From Oscillospiraceae bacterium (GTDB taxonomy: Bacteria > Bacillota > Clostridia > Oscillospirales > Ruminococcaceae): a DNA stretch of 64,000 nt. The translations under genes were made by a program, and so were the position numbers. Shown here piece by piece: positions 1 through 19,167 of the stretch. Position 1 is the stretch's first letter. Each line of letters starts with the position of its first letter. Where the stretch lies: contig JBMNHF010000004.1 of NCBI GenBank assembly GCA_050950205.1, forward strand, positions 19,045 to 83,044. Direction: 5' to 3'. Under the pieces are notes generated by a model. It searched no databases. It had not been told where the DNA came from and saw only the letters and a list, made by a program, of their open reading frames with translations.

Positions 1-2
1 GG

Positions 3-728
3 ATGCTTATGCCGAAGATTAACGAAATCGGAGCGCTGGCGGCTGCCGACGCCACGGCGCGCCTGCGCAGCAGCCTGAAAAACGCGGCTCTTGACGATGC
101 CTGCCTGCAGCTGATTGATGAAGCGGCCGCCAAGGCTGTGGAACATGTCGTGGAGAACATGCTTCTCTGCCTACAAAAAAACGGCGGCCACGCGCTGCTT
201 GCCGGCGTTTTGCCGGAGGCAAAAGCATCCATCGAAAACGGGCTGTCTGATAATAACAGGCCGCTTCCGCTTAGGTTCCCGCTGTTTGTGGACCTAACCG
301 CCCGCCGCGTCGCGGTCATTGGAGCTGGTCCCGTTGCGCTGCGCCGTATCTTGGCCCTTTGCTCTTACCCATGCACCATCCGTGTTATAGCCCCCGACGC
401 ACTGCCTGAGATCGAGCAGCTTCATGCGGAAGGTAAAATTACTTATGTAAAAAAAGCATATGATTCTTCCGATCTGGACGGTGCTTATCTTGTGATCGCC
501 GCCACCAACGACCGTGCGCTGAACAGTCGGATAGCGCTTGATGCCCGAATGAACGGCCAGTATTGCAGCGTTGGCGATTGCAAAGAGGAATGCTCTTTTT
601 ATTTCCCTGCCACGGTTCATTATGACGGCGGTGTCATCGGCATCTGCGGTACCGGTGAAAATCATAAAAAAACAAGGAAGATCGCCGCTGAAATACGGGA
701 GTTCATCTCATCTAAGGAGCAGGTATGA
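3..728 (+). CDS. Precorrin-2 dehydrogenase (SirC/CysG-N-like) domain with an N-terminal helical extension; probably the 3' end of a HemA-SirC fusion cut by the window edge
   Basis: FPLFVDL...VAVIGAGPVALRR Rossmann motif and LVIAATND, typical of SirC/Met8. About 85 aa of helical sequence precede it; it lies directly upstream of hemC. Confidence 0.7.
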   Translation: MLMPKINEIGALAAADATARLRSSLKNAALDDACLQLIDEAAAKAVEHVVENMLLCLQKNGGHALLAGVLPEAKASIENGLSDNNRPLPLRFPLFVDLTARRVAVIGAGPVALRRILALCSYPCTIRVIAPDALPEIEQLHAEGKITYVKKAYDSSDLDGAYLVIAATNDRALNSRIALDARMNGQYCSVGDCKEECSFYFPATVHYDGGVIGICGTGENHKKTRKIAAEIREFISSKEQV

Positions 729-1630
729 AACGATTAATACGGGTCGGCAGCCGCGAATCCAAGCTTGCAGTTACCCAGACCCAAAGCATCATTAACATCA
801 TCAAGACCCATCACCCGGAGCTGGAGTTTGAGATTGTCACCATGAAGACAAGCGGAGATATGATTCTTGACAGGAATCTCGACGAGGTTGGAGGCAAGGG
901 GCTGTTTGTCAAGGAGCTGGATATCGGTCTGCGCAGCGGTCAAATTGATTTCGCTGTCCACAGCCTGAAGGATATGCCCATGCTCACCCCCGAGGACCTT
1001 CCGGTCGTCAGCCTGTCTGTGAGAGAAAATCCGTATGACGCCTTGGTGCTGCCCCGAAAAGCCGGTGAGGTGGACCTTACAAAGCCCTTCGGCTGCTCCA
1101 GTGCCAGGCGGAAGTTGCAGCTTGAAAGACTGTATCCCGGCATCGCAGTCAAGGGTATCCGCGGTAATGTGCAGCTCCGGCTGCAAAAGGTGGACAGCGG
1201 CGATTATGCGGCCACCATCTTGGCCTGCGCGGGACTCAATCGGATGGGACTGCAGCACCGCATATCCAAGGTCTTTACAGAGAAGGACATGATTCCCGCC
1301 GCCGGCCAGGGCATTCTGGCCATCCAGGCCCGGGCGGGAGAAGACCATACATATCTCCGCTGCGTCAATGACCCGGCGTCGCAGATTGCCTTTAACGCCG
1401 AGCGGGCCTTTGTCCGGCGGCTGGACGGCGGCTGTTCGTCCCCGATTGCGGCCTATGCGAAAATCAGCGGCGGTCAGGTGATTCTGCACGGCCTCCATTA
1501 TGACGAGGAGACCGGCCGACATGCCGTCGGTGTGATGGAAATGCCCGTAGCTGAAGCGGAGAAGCTCGGTATTACATTGGCCGAGCAGCTGCTGGCCAAA
1601 CTGAGCAGTGCGAAAGGAGCCGTTATATGA
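725..1630 (+). CDS. hemC: Hydroxymethylbilane synthase
   Basis: RVGSRESKLA, GKGLFVKE, VHSLKD, LDGGCSSP motifs. Confidence 0.97.
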   Translation: MKRLIRVGSRESKLAVTQTQSIINIIKTHHPELEFEIVTMKTSGDMILDRNLDEVGGKGLFVKELDIGLRSGQIDFAVHSLKDMPMLTPEDLPVVSLSVRENPYDALVLPRKAGEVDLTKPFGCSSARRKLQLERLYPGIAVKGIRGNVQLRLQKVDSGDYAATILACAGLNRMGLQHRISKVFTEKDMIPAAGQGILAIQARAGEDHTYLRCVNDPASQIAFNAERAFVRRLDGGCSSPIAAYAKISGGQVILHGLHYDEETGRHAVGVMEMPVAEAEKLGITLAEQLLAKLSSAKGAVI

Positions 1631-3144
1631 AAACAGGAAAGGTATGGCTCGTGGGCGCCGGACCGGGAGATGCGGAGCTTTTGACGCTGAAAGCAACGAG
1701 ACTTCTGGCGGAAGCCGACGTCGTTTTGTACGACAGCCTGGTGGGCGGCGGCATCCTGACGCTCATCCCCGCCGGCACCAGACGGATTGATGTGGGAAAG
1801 CGCGCCGGCCACGCCATGATGGCGCAGGAGGACATCAACAGGACGCTGCTGGAGGAGGCCCTTGCCGGCAATAAGGTCGTCCGGCTTAAAGGGGGCGATC
1901 CCTTTTTATTCGGCAGGGGAGGCGAGGAACTGGAGCTCCTTGTTGAAAACAACATCCCTTATGAGGTTGTGCCGGGCGTCTCCTCGGCTATTGCCGTGCC
2001 GGCATACGCCGGCATCCCCGTCACCCATCGGGATTTTTGCTCCTCAGTCCATATAATAACCGGCCACCTGAAGGACGGCGACAAGCCTCGTATCGATTTT
2101 GAAGCCCTGGTCCGGATGAACGGCACTCTGATCTTTCTGATGGGTGTGGGCGCGCTGGAATATATTTGCGAAAGCCTCATTGGCGCAGGGATGCGCCCCG
2201 ACATGCCCGCAGCTGTCCTGGAAAAGGGGACGACCGCCGATCAGCGGCGCGTCGTGGCAACGCTCAAAACACTTCCGCTTCAGGCCAAACAACACAAGAT
2301 CGCCACACCCGCAATTATTATCGTCGGAGAGGTGGCAGGCCTTGCCGGGAAGTTCCACTGGGCGGAGGACCGGCCCCTGGGCGGCACCCGCGTTATTGTC
2401 ACGCGGCCGCAGGAACTGGTATCGAAGCTGTCAGAAAAACTGCGGCGGCTGGGCGCGGAGGTCCTCGAGCTGCCTGCCATTAAAACAGTAGAAATTGAGG
2501 ACAATACAGAAATCCTGGCTGCGCTCGAGCGTTTGAGGGAATACGGCTGGATTGTCTTCACAAGCCAGGTTGGCGTAGACATTTTCTTCAACCTGCTCCT
2601 GCGTACAGGCGTCGATATCCGCACACTGGCCGGCATTCGGTTCGCCGCCATCGGTACGGCCACGGCGGAAGCCATCAGGGCCCGCTGCATATCGGTGGAT
2701 TGCATACCGGAAAAATACGATGCAGCGTCGCTGGGAAAGGCTCTGGCTGCAGCAGTTGCGCCGGTTGAAAGGCTCTTAATACCCCGCGCGCGCATCGGCT
2801 CGCCGGAGCTGACGGCAATACTGGATCAACAGGGCATCCTGTATGACGATATACCTGTCTACGATACTGTGACCCAAAGCGGCCGCTTATTCCCGCTCTC
2901 CGATGTTCTTAAGATGGAAAAGCCGCCCTATGTGGCGTTTACCAGCGCATCCACCGTCCGCGGTTTTGCCGCTATGGCAGACGGCGCAGATTTGTCAAAG
3001 CTCAATGCCGTCTGCATCGGAGAACAGACAGCGCAGGAGGCTTTGAAATATGGCATGAGCCCGGTGACCTCAGATGAAATCACCATCGACAGTCTCGTTG
3101 CCAAAATTATCGAAATCCACAATGCTCTAAAAATGGGGGGCTAG
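1627..3144 (+). CDS. cobA: Uroporphyrinogen-III C-methyltransferase / uroporphyrinogen-III synthase fusion (CobA-HemD)
   Basis: VGAGPGD, RLKGGDPFLFGRGGEE in the N-half; VIVTRP, IVFTSQVGV, FTSASTV (HemD) in the C-half. Confidence 0.95.
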   Translation: MKTGKVWLVGAGPGDAELLTLKATRLLAEADVVLYDSLVGGGILTLIPAGTRRIDVGKRAGHAMMAQEDINRTLLEEALAGNKVVRLKGGDPFLFGRGGEELELLVENNIPYEVVPGVSSAIAVPAYAGIPVTHRDFCSSVHIITGHLKDGDKPRIDFEALVRMNGTLIFLMGVGALEYICESLIGAGMRPDMPAAVLEKGTTADQRRVVATLKTLPLQAKQHKIATPAIIIVGEVAGLAGKFHWAEDRPLGGTRVIVTRPQELVSKLSEKLRRLGAEVLELPAIKTVEIEDNTEILAALERLREYGWIVFTSQVGVDIFFNLLLRTGVDIRTLAGIRFAAIGTATAEAIRARCISVDCIPEKYDAASLGKALAAAVAPVERLLIPRARIGSPELTAILDQQGILYDDIPVYDTVTQSGRLFPLSDVLKMEKPPYVAFTSASTVRGFAAMADGADLSKLNAVCIGEQTAQEALKYGMSPVTSDEITIDSLVAKIIEIHNALKMGG

Positions 3145-3145
3145 C

Positions 3146-4129
3146 ATGGAAATGACAAATAGGCCGCGGCGGCTTCGAAGCAGCATGACACTGCGGGATA
3201 TGGTCCGGGAGACGCGCATCTCGAAAACTTCTCTCGTTTATCCTCTGTTCGTCAAAGAAGGGTCCGGCATTACGGAGGAAATTGCATCCATGCCGGGTCA
3301 GTTCAGGTACAGCATTGACCGGCTGCCGCTGATTGTGGACGAGCTTCTGAAAGACGGTGTCAACAAGGTGATGCTCTTCGGCATCCCTGACAAGAAGGAT
3401 GAGGCCGCAAGCGGTTCTTATGCTGAAGACGGCATTGTCCAGAAGGCCTTGTGGAGGCTAAAAAAGGATTACCCCGAGCTTTACTGCATTACCGATGTCT
3501 GCCTGTGCGAATATACCTCACATGGTCATTGCGGCGTACTGAACGGGCATACCGTCGATAACGACAAGACGCTGCCGTTGCTGGCAAAGACGGCTCTGTC
3601 ACATGTGCAGGCTGGGGCGGACATGGTGGCGCCCTCGGACATGATGGACGGCCGCGTAGGTGAAATCAGGCGGCTGCTGGATCAGAACGGGCAGACCGAT
3701 ATCCCAATCATGAGTTATGCCGTCAAGTACTGTTCTTCTTTCTACGGCCCCTTCAGAGAAGCTGCCGGTTCGGCTCCCGCCTTCGGAGACCGGCGATCCT
3801 ATCAGATGGATTATCACAATAAAAAAGAAGCCCTCAAGGAAGCGTTGTCAGACCTTGATGAGGGCGCTGACATCCTGATGGTCAAGCCGGCACTTTCTTA
3901 TTTGGATATCATTCAAGCCGTATCATCGTCGGTGAATGTCCCGGTGGCGGCTTACAGCGTCAGCGGAGAGTATGCCATGATTAAATCGGCGGCGGCCGCC
4001 GGATACATTGACGAAGCGGCAGTTATTTGCGAAGCAGCAGCCTCGGTCTTCCGTGCCGGAGCCGATATCCTCATTACTTATTTCGCGCCGGTCATTGCAA
4101 GGTATATCGATGAAGGGAGAATCGGCTGA
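3146..4129 (+). CDS. hemB: Porphobilinogen synthase (Zn-type)
   Basis: RPRRLR, DVCLCEYTSHGHCG, APSDMMDGR, LMVKP. Confidence 0.97.
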   Translation: MEMTNRPRRLRSSMTLRDMVRETRISKTSLVYPLFVKEGSGITEEIASMPGQFRYSIDRLPLIVDELLKDGVNKVMLFGIPDKKDEAASGSYAEDGIVQKALWRLKKDYPELYCITDVCLCEYTSHGHCGVLNGHTVDNDKTLPLLAKTALSHVQAGADMVAPSDMMDGRVGEIRRLLDQNGQTDIPIMSYAVKYCSSFYGPFREAAGSAPAFGDRRSYQMDYHNKKEALKEALSDLDEGADILMVKPALSYLDIIQAVSSSVNVPVAAYSVSGEYAMIKSAAAAGYIDEAAVICEAAASVFRAGADILITYFAPVIARYIDEGRIG

Positions 4130-5415
4130 TGAGCCTCTCGGAAGCGTTGTTCAAAAAAGCAAAACGGGTTATGCCCGGCGGTGTCAACAGTCCGGTTCGG
4201 GCCTTCTCTTCCGTCGGCTCGTCACCCAGATTTATAAAAAGCGCCAACGGCGCGGTCATTACTGACGCTGACGGCAGCAGCTATATCGACTATGTGGGTT
4301 CCTGGGGGCCGATGATTTTAGGCCATAATCACCCCGTCATCCGGGAGGCCGTAATCAAGGCGGCGGAAAAAGGGCTGAGCTTTGGCGCGGCTACGGAGGG
4401 CGAGGTCACCATGGCTGAGCTGATCTGCACGCTCTTTCCCTCCGTCGACATGGTGCGTATGGTCAACTCAGGAACAGAGGCCGTAATGACTGCCATCCGT
4501 GTCGCCCGGGGGGCGACTGGACGGGACAAGATCATTAAGTTTGAAGGCTGTTATCACGGTCACTGCGATGCCATGCTAGTCTCCGCCGGCTCCGGACTCA
4601 TGACCGCCGGCGAGTCCGCCAGCGCCGGCGTCACCGAGGGTACGGCAAAGGACACCTTAACGGCGCCATACAACGACCTGGAAACGACTGCACGGATGTT
4701 CGAGGTGAATAGAGGCCGGATTGCCGCGGTCATCGTTGAGCCGGTGGCAGCCAATATGGGGGTTGTGCTGCCGGAGCGGGGCTTTCTTGAAGGCCTTCGG
4801 GCACTGTGCGATGCCCACGGGGCGTTGCTCATATTTGACGAGGTAATCACCGGTTTTCGCCTTGGGCTCGGCGGCGCTCAGGAGCGATTCGGCGTCCGGC
4901 CCGATCTGACTACCTTCGGGAAGATCATCGGGGGCGGTCTGCCGGTGGGCGCTTACGGCGGCAGACGGGAGCTAATGGAGCAGGTGGCGCCGTTGGGCAA
5001 AGTGTATCAGGCCGGGACCCTCAGCGGCAACCCCATCGCCATGGCCGCCGGCATCGCCCAGCTGACGTATCTGAAAGAGCATCCCGAAGTTTATGCACAT
5101 TTGGATATGCTGGCCGAAAAGCTTTTCAGCGGAATGAAGAAGATGATTGCCGATCTCAAACTCCCCTGTACTTTAAATAATATTGGCTCCCTGGGCTGCT
5201 TGTTTTTTACCGAAGGCCCAATCAGAAATTATCAGGAAGCCCGGGGTTCGGATACGGCGGCTTACGCCCGGTATTTCACGCACATGCTTTCTCGGGGCAT
5301 CTATATCGCGCCGGCTCAGTTTGAGGCGATGTTCATATCAGATTCCCACTCGATTGAACATATTGAGGCAACGCTTTACGCTGCCAGGGACTATTTTGAG
5401 ACGAAAAAGGAGTAG
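4129..5415 (+). CDS. hemL: Glutamate-1-semialdehyde 2,1-aminomutase
   Basis: MPGGVNSPVRAF, KFEGCYHGH, FDEVITGFR, TFGKIIGGG. Confidence 0.97.
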   Translation: MSLSEALFKKAKRVMPGGVNSPVRAFSSVGSSPRFIKSANGAVITDADGSSYIDYVGSWGPMILGHNHPVIREAVIKAAEKGLSFGAATEGEVTMAELICTLFPSVDMVRMVNSGTEAVMTAIRVARGATGRDKIIKFEGCYHGHCDAMLVSAGSGLMTAGESASAGVTEGTAKDTLTAPYNDLETTARMFEVNRGRIAAVIVEPVAANMGVVLPERGFLEGLRALCDAHGALLIFDEVITGFRLGLGGAQERFGVRPDLTTFGKIIGGGLPVGAYGGRRELMEQVAPLGKVYQAGTLSGNPIAMAAGIAQLTYLKEHPEVYAHLDMLAEKLFSGMKKMIADLKLPCTLNNIGSLGCLFFTEGPIRNYQEARGSDTAAYARYFTHMLSRGIYIAPAQFEAMFISDSHSIEHIEATLYAARDYFETKKE

Positions 5416-5420
5416 ATAAC

Positions 5421-5795
5421 ATGACAGGCATTTTACTATTAGCCCACGGCAGCCGCGAGGGTGATACGGAAGTGACTATGCACCAGGTCACAGCTTACGT
5501 TAAGGATATACTCCAAAATGACATGGTGGAGGAAGCTTATCTGCAGTTCCGGGAGCAAAACTTGGAAAACGGCCTGCTGCGTCTCATTGAACGCGGCGCC
5601 GGCGAGATCATTGTGATTCCTTACTTCCTGTTTGAGGGCGTTCACATCAAAGAAGACATCCCCGCCGAGCTTAAAGAGTTTTGCTCACATCATCCTGACA
5701 TTAAAATAACCATGGGTAAAACACTGGGGGCTGATCGGCGGCTTGCGGATATCGTCGCGGACAGAGTACGAGAATTATTGCAGCTTCCAGAGTAA
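5421..5795 (+). CDS. cbiX: Short sirohydrochlorin cobaltochelatase (CbiX-S type)
   Basis: LLAHGSR, PYFLFEGVHIKEDIP; 124 aa single domain. Confidence 0.88.
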   Translation: MTGILLLAHGSREGDTEVTMHQVTAYVKDILQNDMVEEAYLQFREQNLENGLLRLIERGAGEIIVIPYFLFEGVHIKEDIPAELKEFCSHHPDIKITMGKTLGADRRLADIVADRVRELLQLPE

Positions 5796-5836
5796 TCCCA
5801 GGGCGTTTCATCACGGGGCGCCCTTCATTCCATAGA

Positions 5837-6041
5837 CCCGCGGCGTACCTGAATATTCGCCACAAGACCGAACTTTTGGACATTCTCGGGGAGACGGCGC
5901 AAAAAAACAAGAGTTCTCCGGCAATGTGAAATGGTGATTGGCGCGGGAACGCCTGCATGAGCATTTAACGAAGCGAACATGAGACTTCTGAAGCTGGCGG
6001 AGGTGAGCAAAATCCCCGTCTGTCGCGGCGGGATACCGTAA
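5837..6041 (+). pseudogene. Degraded 3' fragment of a FecE/BtuD-type ABC transporter ATPase
   Basis: One frame reads PAAYLNIRHKTELLDIL (like post-Walker-B EPTAYLDIRHKLELL). A second frame reads IGAGTPA*AFNEANMRLL (like GTPEEVFxEENI). No start codon; one frameshift and one internal stop. Confidence 0.5.
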
Positions 6042-6057
6042 GGGGGAAGAAACGGCC

Positions 6058-9171: not shown

Positions 9172-9175
9172 TCTC

Positions 9176-10948: not shown

Positions 10949-11671
10949 AGTTGTCGTTGTGGGAATCGGCCCGGGTAACTATGAAAACATGACGGTCGGG
11001 GCGGATCAGGCCCTGCAGAAGGCGGATGTTATTGTTGGATACCACGTTTATGTGGATTTGATTAAAGAGCGCTATCCTGAAAAAGAGTTCATCACAACGC
11101 CTATGACGCAGGAAACAAAGCGCTGCCGGATGGCCCTCAATGCCGCCGGGTTGGGCAAAACCGTCGCCATGGTCTGCTCCGGTGACAGCGGCATCTATGG
11201 AATGGCCGCGCTGATATACGAGCTGAGGGGCGAGAGTGAGGAGCCGGAAATCGAAGTGATTCCCGGCCTTACTGCGGCAAGCAGCGGGGCGGCGCTTTTG
11301 GGGGCGCCGCTGACCCACGATTTTGCGGTCATCAGCTTAAGCGACCGTTTAACCCCGTGGAAAACGATTGAAAAACGGCTGGAGGCGGCGGCTGAAGCGG
11401 ATCTCTCCATCGTTTTATACAATCCGGCGAGCCACGGTCGGCCCGACCATCTGCGCCGGGCATGTGACATTCTTCTGCGCCGTCTGCCGAAGGAGCGCCC
11501 CTGCGGGATAGTCCAGCATATCGGACGGGAGGGGAAAACCGCCGGTTTACGACGCTCGGGGAGCTTAAGGACGCCGACGTCGATATGTTCTGCACCGTTT
11601 TTATTGGCAATGCCTCCACCAAAGTCATCGGCGGCAACATGGTCACGCCGCGAGGGTACCGCGATGTATAA
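10941..11671 (+). pseudogene. cbiH: Cobalt-precorrin-3 C17-methyltransferase with a single-base frameshift at about 11531-11534
   Basis: TTG start MGKVVVVGIGPG, CSGDSGIYGMA, HDFAVISLSD. The conserved C-terminus (ENRRFTTLGELKDADVDMFCTVFIGNASTKVIGGNMVTPRGYRDV*) continues in another frame after CGG GAG GGG; adding one G to the G4 run restores it. Confidence 0.88.
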
Positions 11672-13655
11672 GCTTTGTGTGTTTGCCGGCACAACGGAGG
11701 GGCGCAGGTTGATTGAGTTTCTTGCCGCCCAGCCTGCCTGCGTCACCGCCTGCGTGGCGACGGAGTACGGCGAGGCCCTTTTGGAGCCGTCTGAAAATCT
11801 TACGGTGCTTAGCCGACGGCTCACAGCGGATGAAATGACGCAGTTTTTTAAGGAAAACGCTTTTGAGCTCGTCATCGACGCCACGCACCCTTATGCCGCA
11901 GCCGTCACCGAGAACATTCGCCATGCGTGCGGATTAGCGGGCACAGAGTATCTGCGGCTCGCTCGGAAGGATTCGGAGATTTCCGCCGATGCCGTCTGTG
12001 TGCCCGACGTTGCCGCGGCCATTGAGTTTTTAAATTCAACGGAGGGAAATATTTTGCTCACAACGGGGAGCAAGGAAATCAACAAGTTTGCAGGACTAAA
12101 TGGGTTTTCTGAGCGTGTGTACGCCCGCGTTCTTCCCATGACAGACTCCCTTGAAGCCTGTCGAGCCGTTGGGCTTCAGCCGGATCATATCATTGCCATG
12201 CAGGGGCCGTTTACGGAGGAAATGAACGAGGCGATGGCGCGGTTTGTCTCCGCCAAGTGGCTTGTTACGAAAGACGGGGGAGATGCGGGTGGTTTTGATT
12301 CCAAAGCGGCCGCGGCGCAAAAAGCGGGGGCCCGTATTTTGGTTATCGGGCGGCCGGCTCAGGTAGAAGGGTTTTCTTTAGCGGATACAATCGAGCAGCT
12401 GTGTTCACGGTTTGGTTTTGTTCGGAAACCGTGTGTGAGCATTGTGGGTATAGGCCCGGGCAGCCGGGATTCCATGACAGTCGCGGCGCGGCGAGCCATC
12501 GAAAAGGCCGACTGCCTCATCGGGGCAAAACGCATGCTTCATGCGGTCGCCTCATCTGGGAAAAAACTCTATGATGCGATAGCGCCGAACGATATAGCGG
12601 CTTTCATTAGAGACCATGGTGAATATCGACGTTTTGCGGTTGTCCTATCCGGCGATGTGGGTTTTTATAGTGGAGCGAAAAAACTCCTGCCGCTTCTTTC
12701 CGACTGCGAGGTTGAGGTTCAGCCTGGCGTGAGCTCTCTTGTCTATCTGTGTGCCAGACTGAAAACCTCTTATGAAGACGTGGTTACGGCGAGCGTTCAC
12801 GGGAGGGAAGAGAATATCGTCCCCGTGGTTAAGGGGAATCCCCGCGTGTTTGTTCTGGTCGGCGACGAGGGGGGCATGGCAGATTTATGCCGGTCTTTAA
12901 TTGATGCCGGGCTTGGAGACGTAAAGCTGCATATCGGTGAGCGGCTGAGCTATTCCGATGAGAGAATAACGTCAGGTACGGCGAGAGAGCTCGCTTGCGG
13001 CGTGTATGACGCGCTCTGCGTCGCCCTTATAGAAAACGAGAAGGCGGGCGCCGTTGTTACCCACGGGCTGCCGGACGAAGCATTTTGGCGGGGAAACGGA
13101 GAGGACGGAATCGTCCCCATGACGAAGAGCGAAGTGCGCTCGGTCTGCCTCTCTAAACTTCGGCTCACGGATCGGGCCGTCTGCTGGGATATTGGCGCAG
13201 GGACAGGGTCAGTAGCCATTGAAATGGCGATTCAAGCAAAAAACGGGCATGTCTTTGCCGTTGAACGAAATGAAGCAGCCCTCTCTCTTATAGAGAAAAA
13301 CAAAGAGCGTCTGGGCGTCCGCAACTTGACAGTGGTGAACGGCTATGCTCCAGATGCCTGCCGTGACCTGCCGGCTCCGACCCATGTGTTTATCGGCGGC
13401 AGCAATGGCAATATGCGGGAGATTCTCGCGCTTTTGCTGGAGAAAAACCCAAACGTTCGCATTGTAGCGACGGCGGTTACGCTGGAGTCGATTGCGGAGC
13501 TTGCAGACTGCATGAAGGAGTATCCTTTTACGGAAACCGAGACTGTCTCTATGACAATCGCGCGGGATAGGAAGCTTGGCGCATACCATCTGATGACGGG
13601 GCGTAACCCGGTATACATTTATACCCTGCAGGCGGGGGACGCTGCCGGCGGGTAA
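11664..13655 (+). CDS. cbiJ: Trifunctional CbiJ-CbiE-CbiT (precorrin-6 reductase / C5-methyltransferase / C15-methyltransferase-decarboxylase)
   Basis: MYKLCVFAGTTEG...IDATHPYA (CbiJ); VGIGPG...LSGDVGFYSG (CbiE); PMTKSEVR...WDIGAGTGSV (CbiT). Its ATG overlaps the native cbiH stop (ATGTATAA). Confidence 0.92.
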   Translation: MYKLCVFAGTTEGRRLIEFLAAQPACVTACVATEYGEALLEPSENLTVLSRRLTADEMTQFFKENAFELVIDATHPYAAAVTENIRHACGLAGTEYLRLARKDSEISADAVCVPDVAAAIEFLNSTEGNILLTTGSKEINKFAGLNGFSERVYARVLPMTDSLEACRAVGLQPDHIIAMQGPFTEEMNEAMARFVSAKWLVTKDGGDAGGFDSKAAAAQKAGARILVIGRPAQVEGFSLADTIEQLCSRFGFVRKPCVSIVGIGPGSRDSMTVAARRAIEKADCLIGAKRMLHAVASSGKKLYDAIAPNDIAAFIRDHGEYRRFAVVLSGDVGFYSGAKKLLPLLSDCEVEVQPGVSSLVYLCARLKTSYEDVVTASVHGREENIVPVVKGNPRVFVLVGDEGGMADLCRSLIDAGLGDVKLHIGERLSYSDERITSGTARELACGVYDALCVALIENEKAGAVVTHGLPDEAFWRGNGEDGIVPMTKSEVRSVCLSKLRLTDRAVCWDIGAGTGSVAIEMAIQAKNGHVFAVERNEAALSLIEKNKERLGVRNLTVVNGYAPDACRDLPAPTHVFIGGSNGNMREILALLLEKNPNVRIVATAVTLESIAELADCMKEYPFTETETVSMTIARDRKLGAYHLMTGRNPVYIYTLQAGDAAGG

Positions 13656-13688
13656 CCCAAAGATCGTGGTTGTGGAAAGGAAACGACG

Positions 13689-15152
13689 ATGGCAAAGAAC
13701 ATTATGATACAGGGGACCATGTCCAACGCGGGAAAGAGCCTGCTGGCGGCGGCGCTGTGCCGCATTTTTAGGCAGGACGGCTACCGCGTCGCTCCCTTTA
13801 AGAGCCAGAACATGGCCCTCAACTCCTTCATCACGGAGACGGGGGGCGAGATGGGGCGGGCGCAGGTGGTGCAGGCGGAGTGTGCCGGCATCGCGCCGGA
13901 CGTGCGCATGAACCCCATTCTCCTCAAGCCCACCACGGACAAGGGCAGCCAGGTTATCGTCGGCGGCAGGGCGCTGGGGAACATGACGGCGACGGAGTAC
14001 TACGCGAAGAAGATGGACTTTCTTCCCATGGTCATGGACGCCTACAACAGCCTCGCCGCGGAAAGCGATGTCATCGTCATCGAGGGGGCGGGGAGTCCCG
14101 CGGAGATTAACCTTAAGCGGGACGACTTCGTGAACATGGGCCTTGCAAAACTCGTGGACGCGCCGGTGCTGCTGGCGGGGGACATTGACAGAGGCGGCGT
14201 CTTCGCCCAGCTTTACGGGACGATTGTCCTTCTCGACCCGGACGAGCGGGCGCGGGTTAAGGGGACTATCGTCAACAAGTTCCGGGGGGACCGCTCCATT
14301 TTAGAGCCGGGGCTGAAAACCCTGGAGGAGCTCTGCGGCGTCCCCGTGGCGGGCGTCGTGCCATACATCCACGTGAACATCGACGATGAGGACAGCCTTA
14401 CAGAGCGTTTCCACCGAAGCACCAAGAAGGGACTTATCGACATCGCCGTCATCCGCCTTCCCTATATCTCGAACTTCACGGACTTTGCCCCCTTCGAGCG
14501 GCAGGAGAACGTCTCCCTGCGGTATGTGGAGAGCGTTGGGGAGCTTGGCCGCCCGGATATGATTATCCTGCCCGGGACGAAAAGCACCATCGCAGACCTC
14601 GTCTGGCTGCGGGAGAGCGGCCTTGAGACAGCTATCCTGCAGGCGGCGTCTTCCGGAACGCTGGTGTTCGGCATTTGCGGCGGGTATCAGATGCTCGGGC
14701 GCAAGATATCCGACCCGGAGCAGGTGGAGTCGGCGGGGCTTACGGAAATTCGCGGCATGGGCCTTCTTGAGATGGACACGGTTTTCCGCGGGGAAAAGGT
14801 GCAGACCCAGACGAAGGGTGTGTTCGATGCGGTGCCCGGGATGCTCTCGGGTCTTAGCGGCATGGCCTACGAAGGCTACGAGATTCATATGGGCCGCAGC
14901 GAGGAAAAAATGCCCGCGATTATGGGCGCGGGCAGCGTGTACGGCAGCTACATCCACGGAATTTTCGACGCGCCGGGGATTTGCGAGACGATTCTCAGAG
15001 CCTTGTGCCGCAAAAAGGGGATTGCCTTCGAGACCCTCGGGGCGGAGGACCCCCGGGCATACAAGGAAAGGCAGTACGACATCCTCGCCGCCGCCGTGCG
15101 AGAAGGCCTCGACATGGACTTTGTGTATCGGGCGCTGAATAGAGAGGTTTGA
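13689..15152 (+). CDS. cbiP: Cobyric acid synthase
   Basis: [53 protein letters not shown]. Confidence 0.97.
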
Positions 15153-15411
15153 GTCTACTGTAATTGAAGCATGGTCTCGAGTATTTTTGGTTTGGCGGAA
15201 TTATTCTTTAGTTGAAAACATTAAGCCATCAGACACATAGATAGACAGAAACTCGGGCAACTAAAAGCAATAACCGATGTCTGCCAATATATACTTGTCA
15301 ATAGGCTTAAATCAAATGGGGTTCCACTGGCACCCCATTATTTATGTAGGGAATACCCAGTGATGAAGGATCAATGTTGTTACTAGGACAACATCCAGCT
15401 TTTCGGAAACG

Positions 15412-15449
15412 ATTTCGCCGACCGGCTTGCCGGTCGGCGAAATTTCTTT
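15412..15449. terminator. Intrinsic terminator hairpin, possibly bidirectional
   Basis: Perfect 15-bp inverted repeat ATTTCGCCGACCGGC/GCCGGTCGGCGAAAT followed by TTCTTTT. Confidence 0.75.
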
Positions 15450-15609
15450 TGCTATGTCTGCAGCATGGAGTCATAATTACCTTTGCTGTGTGCATCCAGA
15501 TGGGCGTCTTTCAGATACATTTTTTCAACCGATAGGTTTGGGTGTTCTTCGAGAATCTTTCGTACTGATCCATCATTTTCATTTTTCTTGAGCAGTAACA
15601 GAATATTGT

Positions 15610-15903
15610 TTATCGTAATGAGTGGCTCGAAAAGATATGCCCGGCTTTGGGTTTTTCGGTAAGCTGATAATATATATCATAGGCTTCCGTAGCCACATCA
15701 ATGGACATTACCTGTGCTTGTCCCACCGAAAGGAGTGCATCTACTCTTGCCTTTAGGTGCGCAATCCCGGGATAGGACAGTTCGTCATAAACAGTTTTAG
15801 GAATAACGATCCTACCGGGATATAACTTAACCAATAAATTTTCATTCCCAACCCACAAAAAAGCCGAGATACAGTCGCTATCAAAAAAGAGCGAATCAGT
15901 CAA
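15610..15903 (-). pseudogene. PIN-domain protein, C-terminally truncated (97 aa)
   Basis: TTG start overlapping the ImmA-like stop; LFFDSDCISAF and IPKTVYDEL PIN motifs present; the expected GxGEA motif and C-terminal half are missing after PKAGHI. Confidence 0.65.
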
Positions 15904-16654
15904 GCAATTCGCCCCCTTCGATTTCCTCCCCATAGACGAGGTCGGAACGGAAAGCAGATAGCAGCAATTCATCATATTTGCCGCTGGATATTAGCCCTTG
16001 TTCCAAAGCTTTTTCCGCCTGCTGAATATAGTAGCCGTATGTCCTGTATCGCTTATCTTCGGGTGTCGGTCTATAGAGTGTATCATCGTAGCCAAGATTA
16101 AGAGCAGATAAAATTACGTTTTGGCGCATTGAATCAGCTTCTTCACGGGTTAATTCATTTTCGCTGAGCAGCCGGTAAAGGATAGCTTGGCGGCTAACAC
16201 GAAAGTATTGCTCCAAACGCACAACATCATGAATGGAAAGCTTGGCGGAGCTCGACTTTTTCAGCTGGTCAATTTTATCCGAAAGGGCATCCGGGGGCAT
16301 AAGCAAATACGATGCAAACTGATCTGCTTGCTTTTCCTTTTCATTTCCCTCGCCGATTGTTTTTGCACACACCGCAGTGAGTTCGTCATCATCAAAATAC
16401 AGGTGATATAGTTCATGAGCCATGGAAAAGCGCTGCCTTCCAAGGGTCATGGCTGAATTAATGGCGATGACATTGCTGCCGGTTCCCTTAATACAAATAC
16501 CGCTAATGTGATTCCCCATCGGATAGTATACGATGGATAATTTATCGATTGTATGAACCAATGCCAATATATCGATCGGAGAAGTCGCATCTTCTCCAAG
16601 CTCTTTCCGTAAACTGAGAGCTTTTTTCCATAACTCTATTCTATCCATTGGCAT
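15896..16654 (-). CDS. ImmA/IrrE-family (COG2856-like) zinc metallopeptidase
   Basis: RQRFSMAHELYHL HExxH motif; EKQADQFASYLLMP; VSRQAILYRL. Confidence 0.9.
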   Translation of the reverse strand: MPMDRIELWKKALSLRKELGEDATSPIDILALVHTIDKLSIVYYPMGNHISGICIKGTGSNVIAINSAMTLGRQRFSMAHELYHLYFDDDELTAVCAKTIGEGNEKEKQADQFASYLLMPPDALSDKIDQLKKSSSAKLSIHDVVRLEQYFRVSRQAILYRLLSENELTREEADSMRQNVILSALNLGYDDTLYRPTPEDKRYRTYGYYIQQAEKALEQGLISSGKYDELLLSAFRSDLVYGEEIEGGELLD

Positions 16655-16994
16655 GCTCACCCTCAAGCAATTGAGTCATAAAGTGGCTATTTAAAGCAAT
16701 CCTGTTTATGGCGCTAATTGCGTCCAAGTCATCTTCTCCGATTTCGCTTGCACGAAGCGCAAAGGACAGCGGTTTAACCTTCATTTCCGGCTCCATGAGT
16801 GCAGATACCCGCGTACCAAACAAGGCTGCAAGCTTATCCAGCATATCCGCCGTCAGTGCCCGTTTGCCTTTCTCGACCATAGACACAAGGCTTTGATCGA
16901 CATGAAGATAATTAGCCACATTGCTTTGTGTAAGGCCGCTATTTTCGCGCAGAGATTTTATCCTTGCTCCGATGATCTCCAGAGAGTTATTCAT
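16641..16994 (-). CDS. XRE-family HTH transcriptional regulator
   Basis: IKSLRENSGLTQSNVANYLHVDQSLVSMVEKG HTH_3 pattern. Confidence 0.9.
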   Translation of the reverse strand: MNNSLEIIGARIKSLRENSGLTQSNVANYLHVDQSLVSMVEKGKRALTADMLDKLAALFGTRVSALMEPEMKVKPLSFALRASEIGEDDLDAISAINRIALNSHFMTQLLEGEHANG

Positions 16995-17353
16995 GATAAT
17001 GCCTCCCTTCTATATTTATAGTATATGCCGCATTTGTCATATTGTCGATCAAATTTATAGCTTATTTTATGACAGTGCTTAGGCATTTATTATTCTCTGA
17101 TTATGCTTCTATACATTGATACTGAATTTAATGGGATTTTGTTTGAAACAACAAGTTCAATGTGTTCAATTTTTATAAGATATATCTTTGATGTTGTATT
17201 GTTATGGAAAGAGATAAAGAGGTGTTTTGTTTATGATTAAACGAGAGTCACATATGAGTCATATTCGTCCCTTCATAGGAAACGATCTCATTAAGATTTT
17301 AACCGGCATCCGGTGTCTTATTTTCGATGCCAGTTGCAGTCAGCGAAATTCAA

Positions 17354-17393
17354 TTGATATTCTAAAGAAATTCGTGTATAATATCTTTAGAAT
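17354..17393 (+). promoter_or_regulatory. sigmaA promoter with TA operator inverted repeat
   Basis: TTGATA(17354)-17 bp-TATAAT(17377); ATTCTAAAGA(17359-68) and TCTTTAGAAT(17384-93) form a 10-bp inverted repeat around the -10. Confidence 0.75.
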
Positions 17394-17413
17394 TGTGTAA
17401 GGAGGTAAACGCT

Positions 17414-17701
17414 ATGCCAAATATAAAGTCCAGCACTGACCTGCGGAATAACTATAATGAGATATCCACCTTCTGTCATGAAAGCCGTGAACCTGTTTTT
17501 ATCACAAAAAACGGGCAGGGAGATTTGGCGGTTATGAGCATTGAAACCTATGAGGCACTCAGCGGCAAGCTTGAACTGTATCACCTGCTTGACGAAGGAC
17601 GATCGGCCGTCAAAGCGGGTAAAAAGCGTCCACTTCAAGATGTCATGAAGGATATTAAGCGAGGCATCGCCGATGGCGAAATATTGGGTAGATGTATCTG
17701 A
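17414..17701 (+). CDS. Phd/YefM-family antitoxin
   Basis: IKSSTDLRNNYNEIS...PVFITKNGQGDLAVMSIETYE; RBS AAGGAGG. Confidence 0.92.
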   Translation: MPNIKSSTDLRNNYNEISTFCHESREPVFITKNGQGDLAVMSIETYEALSGKLELYHLLDEGRSAVKAGKKRPLQDVMKDIKRGIADGEILGRCI

Positions 17702-17987
17702 ACCAGCCGAAAACGACCTTAGGGACATTGTTCGGTATATTGCTTCTCAGCTGTCAGCTCCCATATCGGCAACTCGTATGATGGAGCTTTTTGAAGAGGC
17801 AATGCTAAGTCTGTCCGATATGCCGCAGCGCTGTCCGCTTGTTTCAGACGATCGTCTATCTCAAATGGGATACAGGAAACTAATTGTAAAAAATTACGTT
17901 GTGTTTTTTTCCATAGACGAGAAGAACAAGGTGGTTGACGTTGAAAGAATTCTGTACGGCAGACGCGACTGGATCAGATTTTTATAA
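17673..17987 (+). CDS. RelE/ParE-family toxin
   Basis: VSEPAENDLRDIVRYI...GYRKLIVKNYVVFF...VERILYGRRD; overlaps the antitoxin gene. Confidence 0.9.
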   Translation: MAKYWVDVSEPAENDLRDIVRYIASQLSAPISATRMMELFEEAMLSLSDMPQRCPLVSDDRLSQMGYRKLIVKNYVVFFSIDEKNKVVDVERILYGRRDWIRFL

Positions 17988-18058
17988 TCGATACAAGAAC
18001 AGGGTGACACTATGCAAAGTAGTCACCCTGTTTTCATGTAAATGGATGCGCCGAGCAT

Positions 18059-18622
18059 TTAGGGATTTCGATACTGATCCAGCAGCTCTATATGCTTTTT
18101 GGACTTCTGATGGATGCGGCAAGCTTCTGTTGCCATATAGTTTATCAAGCTGTCCTTTGGCACTAAATACTTGGTATAATACCATACCCCCGTTATCTTT
18201 TCTGCCTTGATCCATTCAGATACTGTGGTTTGGCAGTATCCCGTTAGCTTTGTGACATCATTTACCGTGAGGGCATCCGGAAAAGTGTGCCACTTGTTCT
18301 TAAGCATTGCCATAAACTTCTCGGAGTTGATTGCCTTCGCCGTTTGGCGCTTCGGTTTATATTTTATTCCGCTTGAAAATATCCCCGGTGGTGTCAGCAG
18401 GGTCTCAGGAGATTCTTCCAAGCGGGTAAGGTATGCAATAACGTCGGTTATTTGGATTTTAAACCTGCGGGTCTTTTTGCCGGTATCCTCGCAGGGGATA
18501 TATCCGTTCTCCAAAAGCCATGTGGCTTTTCGTTTGCTTATGCGGCAAATTCTGTAAAGCTGGTCTTGACTTATCTTCTCCGGATATTCAGCCAGAAGGT
18601 AAGAGTAGTCGGTGGCCATCAT
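18059..18622 (-). CDS. Excisionase-like protein with two HTH_17-type DNA-binding repeats
   Basis: ISQDQLYRICRISKRKATWLL and LTVNDVTKLTGYCQTTVSEWIK winged-helix patterns; adjacent to the att-like site. Confidence 0.7.
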   Translation of the reverse strand: MMATDYSYLLAEYPEKISQDQLYRICRISKRKATWLLENGYIPCEDTGKKTRRFKIQITDVIAYLTRLEESPETLLTPPGIFSSGIKYKPKRQTAKAINSEKFMAMLKNKWHTFPDALTVNDVTKLTGYCQTTVSEWIKAEKITGVWYYTKYLVPKDSLINYMATEACRIHQKSKKHIELLDQYRNP

Positions 18623-18778
18623 CGTTCCTCCCATCACATTGATCCTTAGGACAGAGAATTATGCTCTGTCTGCTGCAGGATGTTCTGTTAAAAATCAATG
18701 TCAATGGTAGGATACGCTTGGTTTTGCTTTTTCAAATCGCCGGGAAACTAAAGTATCTTAAGGTTATTTCGCCGGTTG

Positions 18779-18811
18779 TTTTTCTACGGTTTTTCTACAC
18801 TTTTTCTACAC
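18779..18811. repeat. Three tandem 11-bp repeats TTTTTCTAC(GG/AC), candidate integrase arm-binding sites
   Basis: TTTTTCTACGG TTTTTCTACAC TTTTTCTACAC, about 150 bp from the tRNA fragment. Confidence 0.65.
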
Positions 18812-18963
18812 TTTGCCCTGAAAACCGCTAAATCAGTGTGGTATGCCCCTGCGGGGAAATATCGGCGTTTGTGTCTGAAAAGCCTTTATTTATGCGGGTT
18901 TGCGGGATTTTATCTTCTCCTAAAGTTACTCTCGCAAACTCATAAGAACTTGCCTTCAAATAA

Positions 18964-19021
18964 CTCGAAATCAGGTTGTCGAGCAATCGGCACGTGAGTT
19001 CGAATCTCACCGCCTCCGCCA
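18964..19021 (+). pseudogene. 3' half of tRNA-Ser(CGA), att-like site
   Basis: CT-CGA-AA loop, TCAGG stem 3' strand, long variable arm with GCAA loop, GTGAG-TTCGAAT-CTCAC T-arm, CGCCTCC-G-CCA end. The upstream sequence forms no D-arm, acceptor 5' strand or anticodon 5' strand. Confidence 0.9.
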
Positions 19022-19028
19022 AGGTTAT

Positions 19029-19071
19029 CAGGATAGAATGGATGCATCACATGATTCTATCCTGAATTTTT
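19029..19071 (+). terminator. Terminator-like hairpin downstream of the tRNA-Ser fragment
   Basis: CAGGATAGAAT/ATTCTATCCTG 11-bp stem followed by AATTTTT. Confidence 0.6.
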
Positions 19072-19167
19072 ATTATTATGATGTGGATAACGATAGCCCA
19101 GCCGGGATAGAACGTCTTTTGAGGCTCCTTATTTCGGCATGGTAGACAGATTGTGGAGCTTGATCGA

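Follow-up and report, generated by a model that had tools for sequence, protein, structure and literature searches.

A cobalamin biosynthesis cluster as probable cargo of a genomic island in tRNA-Ser(CGA) that is related to Clostridia conjugative elements

We analysed a stretch of 64,000 nt (the window) on contig C4 of the 23-contig, 96.5% complete genome assembly of an Oscillospiraceae bacterium, and compared it with two further genomes (G008 and G012) and with contigs from other assemblies (L numbers), including six of the same species (L024, L025, L027, L030, L031 and L032). Positions 1-18971 of the window, together with 6.4 kb upstream, are probably the right-hand part of a ~27-kb genomic island that is inserted in the anticodon loop of tRNA-Ser(CGA) and derived from a common Clostridia integrative conjugative element (ICE). 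The preliminary description of this DNA had proposed that the hem/cbi genes to the left of a tRNA-Ser fragment are cargo of a mobile island, and the proposal is supported, mostly by other assemblies. The cluster may be regarded as cargo because an island copy with 99.5-99.65% identity has G008-like flanks, whereas the flanks in the window genome are only ~80% identical to G008; because an intact tRNA-Ser(CGA) and a tyrosine integrase adjoin EamA-cbiMNQO-hem-cbi on the left in other assemblies; because the same ICE end-module, followed by a tRNA-Ser 3' half, lies directly to the right of cobQ in other assemblies; because contigs of the window's own species have an island-free tRNA-Ser(CGA) on the same right flank; and because the window genome is without other corrin-ring genes, though it harbors cbiB and cobS elsewhere.

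The hem/cbi genes occupy positions 3-15152 (NCBIfam, Pfam), in line with the 15 kb first reported, and the cluster extends upstream of the window (C4:13383-19044) with cbiL, cbiMNQO and EamA. The features of this segment in the window are as follows.

3-728, + strand: 3' part of a fusion of hemA (glutamyl-tRNA reductase) with sirC (precorrin-2 dehydrogenase) (NCBIfam siroheme synthase N-terminal domain)
725-5795, + strand: hemC, a cobA-hemD fusion, hemB, hemL and cbiX (small cobaltochelatase) (NCBIfam, above or near the curated cut-offs)
6058-10948, + strand: cbiA, cbiC, cbiD, cbiF and cbiG (NCBIfam, Pfam)
10926-13655, + strand: cbiH, fused to cbiJ-cbiE/T in the window assembly (Pfam TP_methylase, CbiJ and methyltransferase domains)
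13689-15152, + strand: cobQ/cbiP (cobyric acid synthase), the final gene of the captured cob segment (Pfam)
15153-15634, no strand: low-GC spacer, the right edge of the captured 22-kb segment (homology to other ICE-module copies begins at 15635)

The hemA/precorrin-2 dehydrogenase open reading frame starts at C4:18057 and encodes 571 aa; the identical 571-aa gene on contig L039 contains the Pfam domains GlutR_N, Shikimate_DH and NAD_binding_7. The anaerobic (early cobalt insertion) corrin set is complete, comprising CbiX/K, CbiL, CbiH, CbiF, CbiG, CbiD, CbiJ, CbiE/T, CbiC, CbiA and CbiP/CobQ in addition to hemA-L and cobA (NCBIfam, Pfam). In the window assembly, a G5 run at 11530 is short by one G, which puts the last ~45 codons of cbiH out of frame, while every other copy, among them those of three same-species contigs, has the GGGGG run intact, with separate genes of 243 and 663 aa. 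Since cbiH is frameshifted in its assembly, B12 production by the window strain itself is not assured. Neither paralogues of the cbi genes nor other corrin-ring genes were found elsewhere in the window genome, and the lower-pathway genes cbiB and cobS are located on contig C20, outside the cluster. In a tree, the island CobQ clusters at 100/100 support with the proteins of a Papillibacter MAG and of a JGI contig, away from the CobQ proteins of other members of the genus; CbiD is present in 9 of the 15 genomes of the genus. At 15.2 kb the GC content drops from 0.54-0.60 to 0.39-0.45, and the low-GC spacer contains the 59-codon tail of an unrelated gene (15452-15631, - strand) that has no Pfam match. 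The breakpoint between the cob segment and the ICE module that follows it lies at ~15635.

The genes of this right-end module are listed below.

15610-15903, - strand: truncated DUF3368 (PIN-like) gene (translation compared with L037)
15896-16666, - strand: ImmA-like M78 peptidase (Pfam Peptidase_M78)
16641-16994, - strand: ImmR-like XRE repressor (Pfam HTH_3)
17393-17701, + strand: Phd/YefM antitoxin (Pfam PhdYeFM_antitox)
17673-17987, + strand: ParE toxin (Pfam ParE_toxin)
18059-18637, - strand: HTH_17 protein of 186-192 aa, excisionase-like, a candidate recombination directionality factor (Pfam HTH_17)

The first 89 codons of the DUF3368 gene match the intact 178-aa copies, which are found in 10 other genomes, exactly, and are followed by eight foreign codons and a stop. 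The module is 98.7% identical to that of L037, which has an unrelated flank, and the breakpoint falls within the DUF3368 gene; beyond it, the intact relatives carry DUF4314, Dam methylase, YodL, SpoVG and a giant SLH protein. ImmA and ImmR constitute the regulatory pair of the ICE family, and an identical ImmR protein occurs in 1280 indexed blocks of the assembly collection. The adjacent and overlapping Phd and ParE genes, which are present in every module copy, are predicted from their domains to form a type II toxin-antitoxin system; of the several toxin-antitoxin modules claimed earlier, this is the one clear pair, and the truncated PIN-like gene is present as well. The excisionase-like gene noted in the preliminary description does encode an HTH_17 domain; it is always the final gene before the attachment site, and one of its 239 homologues bears the source name 'excisionase family DNA binding protein'. 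The island ends belong to a very widespread Clostridia ICE family. However, an ICE is defined by a conjugation module of its own (relaxase, coupling protein and mating-pair genes), which the island does not have: no relaxase or type IV secretion genes were found between int and the HTH_17 gene, where all genes were assigned (EamA, cbiMNQO, hem/cbi, the truncated PIN gene, ImmA/ImmR and Phd/ParE).

The module ends in an attachment site, beyond which the chromosome resumes from position 19022.

18638-18963, + strand: right arm (P arm) of the attachment site (sequence; conserved in 12 host contexts)
18780-18812, + strand: three tandem 11-bp units of the form TTTTTCTAC(GG/AC), namely TTTTTCTACGG, TTTTTCTACAC and TTTTTCTACAC
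18964-18971, + strand: core/crossover CTCGAAAT, the anticodon loop of tRNA-Ser(CGA) (end of the conserved arm in 12 hosts, with host-specific sequence beyond)
18972-19021, + strand: remaining 3' half of tRNA-Ser(CGA), of island-borne type (100% identical to the tRNA of L039 and G008:C46)
19022-19080, + strand: native right flank with the hairpin and T-run terminator of the tRNA-Ser locus (identical in the empty-site contig L031 and in occupied contigs)

The three 11-bp repeats, which do lie about 150 bp inside the tRNA fragment as first described, are presumed to be arm-type binding sites of the integrase or of a directionality factor. The motif TTCTAC occurs three times in the right arm and five times in a 460-nt stretch at the opposite end of the island, versus 0.30 times per kb genome-wide. 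Across the 12 different host contexts, the arm is conserved through ...CAAATAA and the core is constant, while the 3' halves are host-specific; the displaced tRNA 5' halves terminate at the same octamer. Positions 18964-19021 read CTCGAAATCAGGTTGTCGAGCAATCGGCACGTGAGTTCGAATCTCACCGCCTCCGCCA, from the anticodon loop through CCA of tRNA-Ser(CGA), and no complete tRNA was found there by ARAGORN or Rfam. The fragment reported earlier is thus real, and it is identical to the 3' half of the complete genes in G008:C46 and L039. It was also taken to be a displaced 3' fragment, but it is not the native half: it differs from the tRNA of the conspecific empty site (L031) at ~10 positions and by a 2-nt indel. 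A non-native 3' half at the right end is not predicted by simple site-specific integration. The 23-contig assembly contains neither a second copy of the fragment nor an intact tRNA-Ser(CGA); its tRNA-Ser genes are of the (tga), (gct) and (gga) types, and the tRNA-Ser(UGA) at C14 might read UCG codons.

Both ends of the ~27-kb island are visible in a G008-like species, in which the same DNA is 99.5% identical to that of the window genome, while the backbones of G008 and the window genome are ~80% identical. The order in this host is the displaced tRNA-Ser 5' half (L039 7540-7580), a 150-nt spacer, the island's own complete tRNA-Ser(CGA), a 5'-truncated integrase, EamA-cbiMNQO-hem-cbi-cobQ, the truncated PIN gene, ImmA/ImmR, Phd/ParE, HTH_17, the core CTCGAAAT and the displaced 3' half (L059 15279-15334). 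The left end, running from a histidine kinase through the 5' half, spacer, tRNA-Ser(CGA) and int to EamA-cbiMNQO and onward, occurs in at least seven assemblies. When the 5' and 3' halves are joined, attB is rebuilt as a tRNA-Ser(CGA) recognized by ARAGORN, both in the G008-like host and in G012. The split target tRNA marks both island ends in the G008-like host, and the right end alone is seen in the window genome. The element's tRNA-Ser(cga) lies just inside the left end, with int next to it (L039 7732-7822, L012 9987-10077 and L013 9582-9670; ARAGORN). The integrase (L039 7986-9068) contains Phage_integrase and SAM-like domains, and its homology to a 395-aa G008 protein ends ~35 codons before the start of the latter; the context of this integrase variant is the same in 23 of the 23 contigs examined. 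At the level of alignments, L039 9200-20942 corresponds to C4 12608-24324 at 99.65% identity, and L059 1-15334 to C4 22734-38065 at 99.52%. The flank L039 1-9068 is 92-97% identical to G008:C46 and has no counterpart in the window genome, and the flank of L059 is 95.5% identical to G008:C143. As more than 10 independent assemblies agree, it is unlikely that the G008-like contigs are assembly chimeras.

Within the window's own species, the site is polymorphic for presence and absence of the island. Two contigs (L031 and L027) are empty: in them the tRNA-Ser(CGA) gene is unbroken and continues into the same right flank, which bears out the expectation of an empty site in close relatives, while the site is occupied in L024, L025, L030, L032 and the window; the empty and occupied flanks are 99.8-100% identical. 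The left flank of the empty site differs and is absent from the window assembly, in which the left end of the island (intact tRNA-Ser(CGA), integrase or close homologue of it, and left flank) was not found, the sequence to the left of C4:12608 being another mobile mosaic. The matching tRNA and integrase that were expected upstream are therefore missing from this assembly and present in others. Neither of the observations named beforehand as contrary to the cargo proposal was made, namely a matching tRNA/att copy that lies between 15152 and 18960 or nowhere, or relatives in which the cob cluster stands at this position although their tRNA-Ser site is empty.

We propose that a very common Clostridia ICE was the ancestor of the island, and that just its two ends are left. 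One end consists of the spacer, the complete tRNA-Ser(CGA) of the element and a tyrosine integrase gene from which the first ~35 codons are missing, and the other of half the PIN gene, ImmA/ImmR, Phd/ParE, the HTH_17 excisionase-like gene and the TTCTAC-repeat arm. The ICE interior, which holds the transfer genes in intact relatives, has probably been swapped for a 22-kb chromosomal-type segment from a Papillibacter-like donor, predicted to code for EamA, the cobalt transporter CbiMNQO and all steps from glutamyl-tRNA to cobyric acid. Integration would occur by way of a core just 9-11 bp long (A-CTCGAAAT), splitting the host tRNA without rebuilding it, and the element's own tRNA gene would take over. 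The preliminary description had instead assumed that an intact tRNA is regenerated at one end, which is not so: the shared core is only 9-11 bp, a whole replacement tRNA is carried, and the 5' half is followed by a non-tRNA spacer and not by island sequence restoring the gene. With the island, a host that otherwise possesses just the lower pathway (cbiB and cobS) may gain the upper part of B12 synthesis. A 99.5% identical copy in a species that is ~20% different elsewhere points to a recent transfer of the capacity for B12 synthesis from one species to another. Because the integrase is 5'-truncated and transfer genes are absent, present-day mobility of the island is doubtful and autonomous mobility unlikely; its spread might have relied on intact relatives to provide Int, Xis and transfer functions in trans, or on recombination with a resident relative.

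The continuity from cobQ to the species' own right flank across the shared 3.1-kb module is seen in contig C4 alone, and C4 might have falsely joined the cob island of another organism to the window genome's tRNA-Ser site through this common module. Other same-species assemblies break at both module edges, the metagenome contigs ending 141 nt into the module on the cob side and 120-300 nt on the flank side, and therefore the module must be multi-copy in those samples; moreover, the final ~185 nt before the flank are of other ancestry than the remaining module. However, over 15635-18800 the C4 module and the G008-like island copy are no more than ~0.45% apart, compared with 98.7% identity to L037 and 97.5% to G008:C143, and therefore nearly all of it is the cob island's own module. 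In addition, assemblers usually break rather than join at such repeats, a cob segment with this module must end at some tRNA-Ser(CGA), the site here holds such an arm in four independent contigs, and haplotype-specific SNPs on both sides agree with C4. We thus consider a false join improbable. Still less credence is due to the idea that the hem/cbi genes are ancestral chromosome, to which the deletion of the left part of a neighbouring element fused a 3.4-kb remnant at cobQ. It would account for the GC content of the cob genes, which is nearer to the genome mean (~0.525, from per-contig values) than that of the module, for the interruption of an element gene at the junction, and for the failure to find an integrase in the window genome; but it appears already contradicted by the same cobQ-to-PIN junction and 99.5% identical cob DNA in a species with an ~80% identical backbone, between both halves of that species' own tRNA-Ser, as well as by the missing left flank of the empty site and by a CobQ that is not of the genus type.

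A different question is how the island came to its present sites. It is conceivable, though we lean against it, that the same island is now a fixed, immobile relic in both species, having arrived by homologous recombination with a resident element of the same family. The truncated integrase, the absent transfer genes and the single context of the integrase variant fit this scenario, as do the terminal 185 nt and the 3' half of separate lineage, which would result from a right crossover at about 18.75-18.84 kb within a resident element. Against it, empty and occupied sites coexist in one population with >99.8% identical flanks, which fits a recent gain or loss, and there are extremely many intact relatives from which Int, Xis and transfer functions could come. 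Our preferred reading remains that of an ICE-derived island in tRNA-Ser(CGA) with the B12 genes as cargo.

The arrangement closely resembles the tRNA-dependent lysogeny of mycobacteriophages, in which the site used by a tyrosine integrase lies within a host tRNA gene, attP and attB have only ~10 bp in common, no functional tRNA is rebuilt, and an element-borne tRNA gene of the same isotype substitutes for the broken one (Guerrero-Bustamante & Hatfull 2024, PMC10865867). The island likewise has a short (~10 bp) core, no rebuilt junction tRNA and its own tRNA of the same isotype. It differs from these phages in its carrier, a Clostridia ICE family with a derived cargo island, in its target, the anticodon loop of tRNA-Ser(CGA), and in that orphan 5' halves accumulate upstream of the tRNA in the Clostridia elements; dependence of the host on the island tRNA is a putative parallel only, as tRNA-Ser(UGA) might suffice for UCG. 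In classical tRNA-integrated islands, a 3' copy within attP restores the gene, giving one intact hybrid tRNA and one 3' fragment (Islander definition, PMC4383910). Our island shares with these islands and ICEs the tRNA target, a tyrosine integrase gene, here truncated, near one end with an Xis-like gene and arm repeats near the opposite one, an end marked by a displaced tRNA fragment, and variable presence within a species. It departs from them in that the host gene is displaced in both of its halves, and in that the island brings, 150 nt from its edge, a further complete tRNA under a promoter of its own. The classification of tRNA sites by Williams in 2002 is said to include anticodon-loop sites.

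Plasmid pSZ77 of Geobacter lovleyi carries 15 of 24 de novo cobalamin genes of chromosome-like origin and has a 99% identical copy in a second strain (PMC3403914). Both are mobile-type carriers of cobalamin genes with a near-identical second copy; in contrast to this proteobacterial plasmid, the island is inserted at a chromosomal tRNA in Clostridia, is common to two species, and has a complete upper pathway with a cobalt transporter, while the lower pathway remains chromosomal. Mobilizable genomic islands, such as the MGIs of SXT/R391 elements and SGI1, use the functions of helper ICEs. Similarly, the cargo island has retained attachment sites and small regulatory genes without transfer machinery, alongside complete relatives. 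It looks less like a dedicated parasite than like the ICE itself after deletion and replacement of its interior, and an oriT, the use of a helper and transfer are all putative for it. The pdu-cbi-cob-hem island of Limosilactobacillus reuteri and Loigolactobacillus coryniformis contains a B12 cluster regarded as horizontally acquired; we know of no defined tRNA attachment site, integrase or ICE ends for it. The island described here would likewise be a horizontally acquired B12 cluster in a Firmicute, and differs in having a tRNA site, a truncated integrase gene and ICE ends.

In the window, positions 18964-19021 match exactly the 3' half of a tRNA-Ser(CGA), from the anticodon loop (CTCGAAAT) through CCA, and neither ARAGORN nor Rfam finds a complete tRNA near 19 kb, in agreement with the preliminary description. 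The three tandem 11-bp repeats that it placed about 150 bp inward of this fragment are present at 18780-18812 as units of the form TTTTTCTAC(GG/AC), and the excisionase-like gene, toxin-antitoxin genes and hem/cbi array that it saw further left were identified as follows.

Features left of the tRNA fragment (window coordinates)
18059-18637, minus strand: HTH_17 protein (candidate excisionase), first gene left of the tRNA fragment
left of the HTH_17 gene: ParE and Phd
16641-16994, minus strand: XRE repressor
15896-16666, minus strand: ImmA-type M78 peptidase
left of the peptidase gene: short PIN-like ORF
leftward from 15152, plus strand: gap-free array of cobQ, cbiH-J-ET, cbiG, cbiF, cbiD, cbiC, cbiA, cbiX, hemL, hemB, cobA-hemD, hemC and the end of a hemA-sirC fusion
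contig C4 upstream of the window: continuation of the array, with cbiL, cbiO, cbiQ, cbiN, cbiM and an EamA transporter

The GC content steps from 0.54-0.60 to 0.39-0.45 at 15.2 kb. Neither an intact tRNA-Ser(CGA) nor a second copy of the fragment occurs anywhere in the assembly of the genome under study (G000; 2.41 Mb in 23 contigs, of which C4 holds the window at 19045-83044). The 44 tRNA genes detected there include no His tRNA and lack Ser(CGA); as this set is incomplete, a missing tRNA gene carries little weight. The expectation of an intact tRNA-Ser(CGA) and an integrase upstream fails in this assembly, but holds in others, where both lie left of EamA-cbiMNQO. We located this left end by exact-protein look-up of EamA, which returned at least seven independent assemblies with one order.

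Order of the left end in other assemblies, left to right
1: ABC transporter, AraC, MCP and hybrid histidine kinase genes
2: tRNA-Ser 5' half, last bases CTCGAAAT
3: spacer of 150 nt, containing two TTCTAC units and a promoter-like TTGACT-N18-TATTAA
4: complete tRNA-Ser(CGA) with its own terminator
5: tyrosine integrase, minus strand
6: tRNA-Ala(GGC) 3' fragment
7: EamA, cbiMNQO, cbiL, and hemA onward

From position 9200 of L039 (the contig in which the left end was read), equivalent to C4 12608, onward, these contigs and C4 share 99.5-99.95% identity, whereas to the left of that position the contigs match contig C46 of the relative genome G008 at 92-97% and have no counterpart in G000. The window fragment and the 3' half of the complete tRNA at this left end show 100% identity. 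Alignment of the island integrase to the 395-aa G008 protein ends 35 codons short of the start, the called gene encoding 328 aa, and all 23 contigs read with this variant share one set of neighbours. One or two orphan tRNA-Ser 5' halves ending in CTCGAAA(T) stand upstream of the complete tRNA-Ser(CGA), at 9201-9670 of L013 (contig C1 of relative genome G012), 9795-10077 of L012 (G008 contig C46) and 7540-7822 of L039, and each is followed by a spacer of about 150 nt with TTCTAC units and a promoter. The outer orphan 5' half in G012 is of a third tRNA type, and no partner 3' half was found for it beside the right end.

The right end was reached in a second species through a 99%-identical CobQ (P0122), on L060 and on the 119.7-kb contig L059. 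Both run from hemB through cobQ to the same cut PIN gene, ImmA, XRE, Phd, ParE, HTH_17 and the conserved arm, past which come CTCGAAAT and GCGTTAGCCCTTACGGGCTCGTGGGTTCGAATCCCACCGTCTCCGCCA, and then genes for GDPD, a ugp-type transporter and LacI. Positions 1-15334 of L059 are 99.52% identical to C4 22734-38065, and from 13238 on L059 matches G008 contig C143 at 95.5%, whereas the flanks of G000 match G008 at only 80%. The 3' half at the L059 end pairs with the displaced 5' half (GGAGACG/CGTCTCC and GCGCA/TGCGT), and the displaced halves, when joined, give a tRNA-Ser(CGA) by ARAGORN, as do those of a 66-kb relative in the complete genome G012. Since both ends have been read and the halves rebuild the host tRNA, we conclude that the cob island measures about 27.0 kb from core to core, that it splits the host gene, with which it has only A-CTCGAAAT in common, and that it carries its own complete tRNA-Ser(CGA). 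A circular form would carry the junction ...CCTTCAAATAA-CTCGAAAT-CCACTCGGTCAG..., and, judging from coordinates, the lengths and termini of 25-43-kb contigs in other samples are consistent with a span from the integrase to the right arm.

In G000's own species, we compared ten contigs encoding an identical right-flank YIEGIA protein. One of them, L031, has an unbroken tRNA-Ser(CGA) (GGAAGCG...CGCTTCCGCCA); the end of a protein-coding gene lies before it, and after it comes precisely the window flank from 19022. This is the empty site sought among close relatives. L027 ends 33 nt into the tRNA, and those 33 nt are of the native type; L024, L025, L030 and L032 resemble the window in having the arm. 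The flanks of empty and occupied contigs are 99.8-100% identical. The G000 assembly does not contain the empty site's left flank, and an exact-pattern search of metagenome contigs for it gave no match. With both ends seen in a second species and an empty site in G000's own species, the initial observation is confirmed, and its first reading, that the hem/cbi genes are cargo of an island, is supported with corrections. We had also considered that the cob cluster is native and that 15.6-19.0 kb is the remnant of a deletion, on account of the drop in GC, the truncated PIN gene and the absent integrase; this was overturned by the contexts of EamA, CobQ and the integrase.

The right-hand part of the island is the end of a very common type of element. 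L037, a Logan contig, matches window 15635-19021 at 98.7% next to different neighbours (AraC and a MacB-type ABC transporter), and its DUF3368 PIN-like gene encodes 178 aa, to which the window copy is identical for 89 codons before foreign sequence begins. The assembly collection indexes an identical XRE protein in 1280 blocks, while ImmA, HTH_17 and the truncated PIN gene, looked up as exact proteins, gave no matches, for which start-codon choice is probably responsible. Ten long contigs carry HTH_17, ParE, Phd, XRE, ImmA and DUF3368, followed by DUF4314, a Dam-type methylase, YodL, DUF6133, SpoVG and a giant SLH protein, and the genes beyond DUF3368 are the interior of a large conjugative-type element. 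In 12 host contexts the conserved arm terminates in ...CAAATAA, followed by CTCGAAA(T/A), a host-specific tRNA-Ser 3' half and a terminator; because arm conservation stops at CTCGAAA(T/A) with host-specific 3' halves beyond, we place the crossover in the anticodon loop.

Several other loci bear on this family. In L052, L054 and L055 the tRNA-Ser 3' half to the right of the ICE arm is followed by an element-type tRNA terminator and another integrase, a layout indicating that one element has inserted in the tRNA brought by an earlier one. L038 (GCA_029265405.1, JAJUJI010000005.1; 9800-10561 and 18768-20561) has a lone HTH_17 homologue (82%) lying 8 kb from a hemB-hemL-cbiX group, with a decayed arm and without the tRNA fragment. 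A distant tyrosine integrase (25% identity to that of G008) at 78665-79948 of G000 contig C14, directly after tRNA-Ser(tga) and tRNA-Ser(gct), may mark another integrated element.

Where the second species has the integrase, C4 carries a separate mosaic, element X (C4:1-12291), with phage (Mu-like) head and protease genes, an IS21 istA and truncated istB, two ArdA-like genes, an IS1182-like transposase and YpsA. An intact tRNA-Ala(GGC) of its own (12292-12367, minus strand) and a 240-nt spacer close the mosaic, which extends to C4:12607 (locus L016). The insertion lies in the tRNA-Ala 3' fragment with which the cob segment opens on its left, where the variable loop meets the T arm. Element X repeats the "bring your own tRNA" arrangement, here with another tRNA gene. 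A single large ICE had been entertained, as C4:1-12 kb partly matches the interior of the G012 element, and was rejected, as the tRNA-Ala junction marks element X as a separate, later insertion.

The cargo itself, 22 kb long and higher in GC, fills the stretch from the cut integrase to the cut PIN gene. It begins with about 100 nt and the tRNA-Ala(GGC) 3' fragment, its last feature is an unrelated gene's tail, and it amounts to chromosomal DNA that has taken the place of the element interior. In the CobQ tree, the clade (support 100/100) of the island protein also takes in those of a Papillibacter MAG (87%) and a JGI contig (88%), whereas G008's own CobQ (77%) and those of other members of the genus (56-62%) fall outside it. 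The nearest non-island CobQ (88%) lies in a different gene order without a common flank, and so does not point to a donor locus. CbiD occurs in 9 of 15 genomes of the genus. G000 has no second copies of cbiA, cbiC, cbiD, cbiF, cbiG, cbiH-J-ET, cobQ, hemB, cobA-hemD, cbiX or cbiL, and its cbiB and cobS are on contig C20; we therefore infer that the island is the sole route to cobyric acid and supplies the upper B12 pathway, the chromosome providing the later steps. At window 11530, G000 reads GGGG where all other copies, three same-species contigs included, read GGGGG, which shifts the frame of the last 45 or so codons of cbiH and fuses it to cbiJ-cbiET in a 909-aa ORF; this may be a consensus error or a genuine defect.

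The window's 3' half belongs to the island tRNA type, not the native type of L031, whereas the 3' halves of other hosts are host-specific. Moreover, within the last 185 nt or so of the arm, 11 differences from the G008-like copy fall in 100 nt (18837-18935), against 0.25-0.45% elsewhere; same-species contigs carry G000's version of this patch, which looks like a recombination boundary. Both features possibly reflect gene conversion, started by the integrase, between the anticodon loop of the island tRNA and the right end. Entry by recombination with a resident relative is another possibility, and so is insertion into a tRNA that had been replaced before; G012 is an example, with an orphan 5' half of a different type ahead of its split tRNA. 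The native tRNA of G000's species and the island tRNA are one base apart in the 5' half. C4 could itself be chimeric and falsely join the cob side to the G000 flank across the common 3.1-kb module, for only C4 runs through that module: in other same-species assemblies the contigs end at either edge, at the cob edge exactly 141 nt into the module. However, the C4 module is closest to the cob island's own copy, and for this reason we regard a false join as quite improbable.

Our reading of an inserted island can be extended, tentatively and with somewhat less than an even chance of being right in full, to the following model: a very widespread Clostridia ICE family breaks tRNA-Ser(CGA) in the anticodon loop without repair and brings its own tRNA, and the cob island is an ends-only derivative, moved by intact relatives, that turns salvagers into producers. 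With a cut integrase and no transfer genes, the cob island is unlikely to move on its own. If the model is correct, the host would depend on the element, newer elements would nest in the tRNA of earlier ones and orphan 5' halves would stack up, while corrinoid salvagers would become de novo B12 producers. Few microbes make B12 and many need it, and its makers shape anaerobic communities such as those of digester and chain-elongation reactors, from which these contigs originate. The cob island documents a case of the entire upper pathway (about 20 genes plus a cobalt importer) moving between species as one integrative-island block that complements a chromosomal lower pathway; therefore, B12 producer status can be a strain-level, transferable trait in Clostridia.

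Full-text literature searches surfaced neither a description of a tRNA-inserted, ICE-derived upper-B12 island nor one of this ICE family's tRNA strategy, which is no proof of absence. Cobalamin genes on the mobile replicon pSZ77, a plasmid of Geobacter lovleyi (PMC3403914), are a precedent for those of the cob island. Classical islands, as described in PMC4383910, restore their target gene, and in this respect the cob island departs from them. In contrast, its integration logic, like that of the ICE, matches the "tRNA-dependent lysogeny" of mycobacteriophages in a core of about 10 bp, a tRNA that is not rebuilt, and an isotype-matched tRNA on the element (PMC10865867). The ICE would then be the conjugative counterpart of this phage lifestyle, and the strategy of breaking a tRNA and bringing a spare, described until now for mycobacteriophages, would also be used by conjugative elements that are very widespread in Clostridia-type assemblies.
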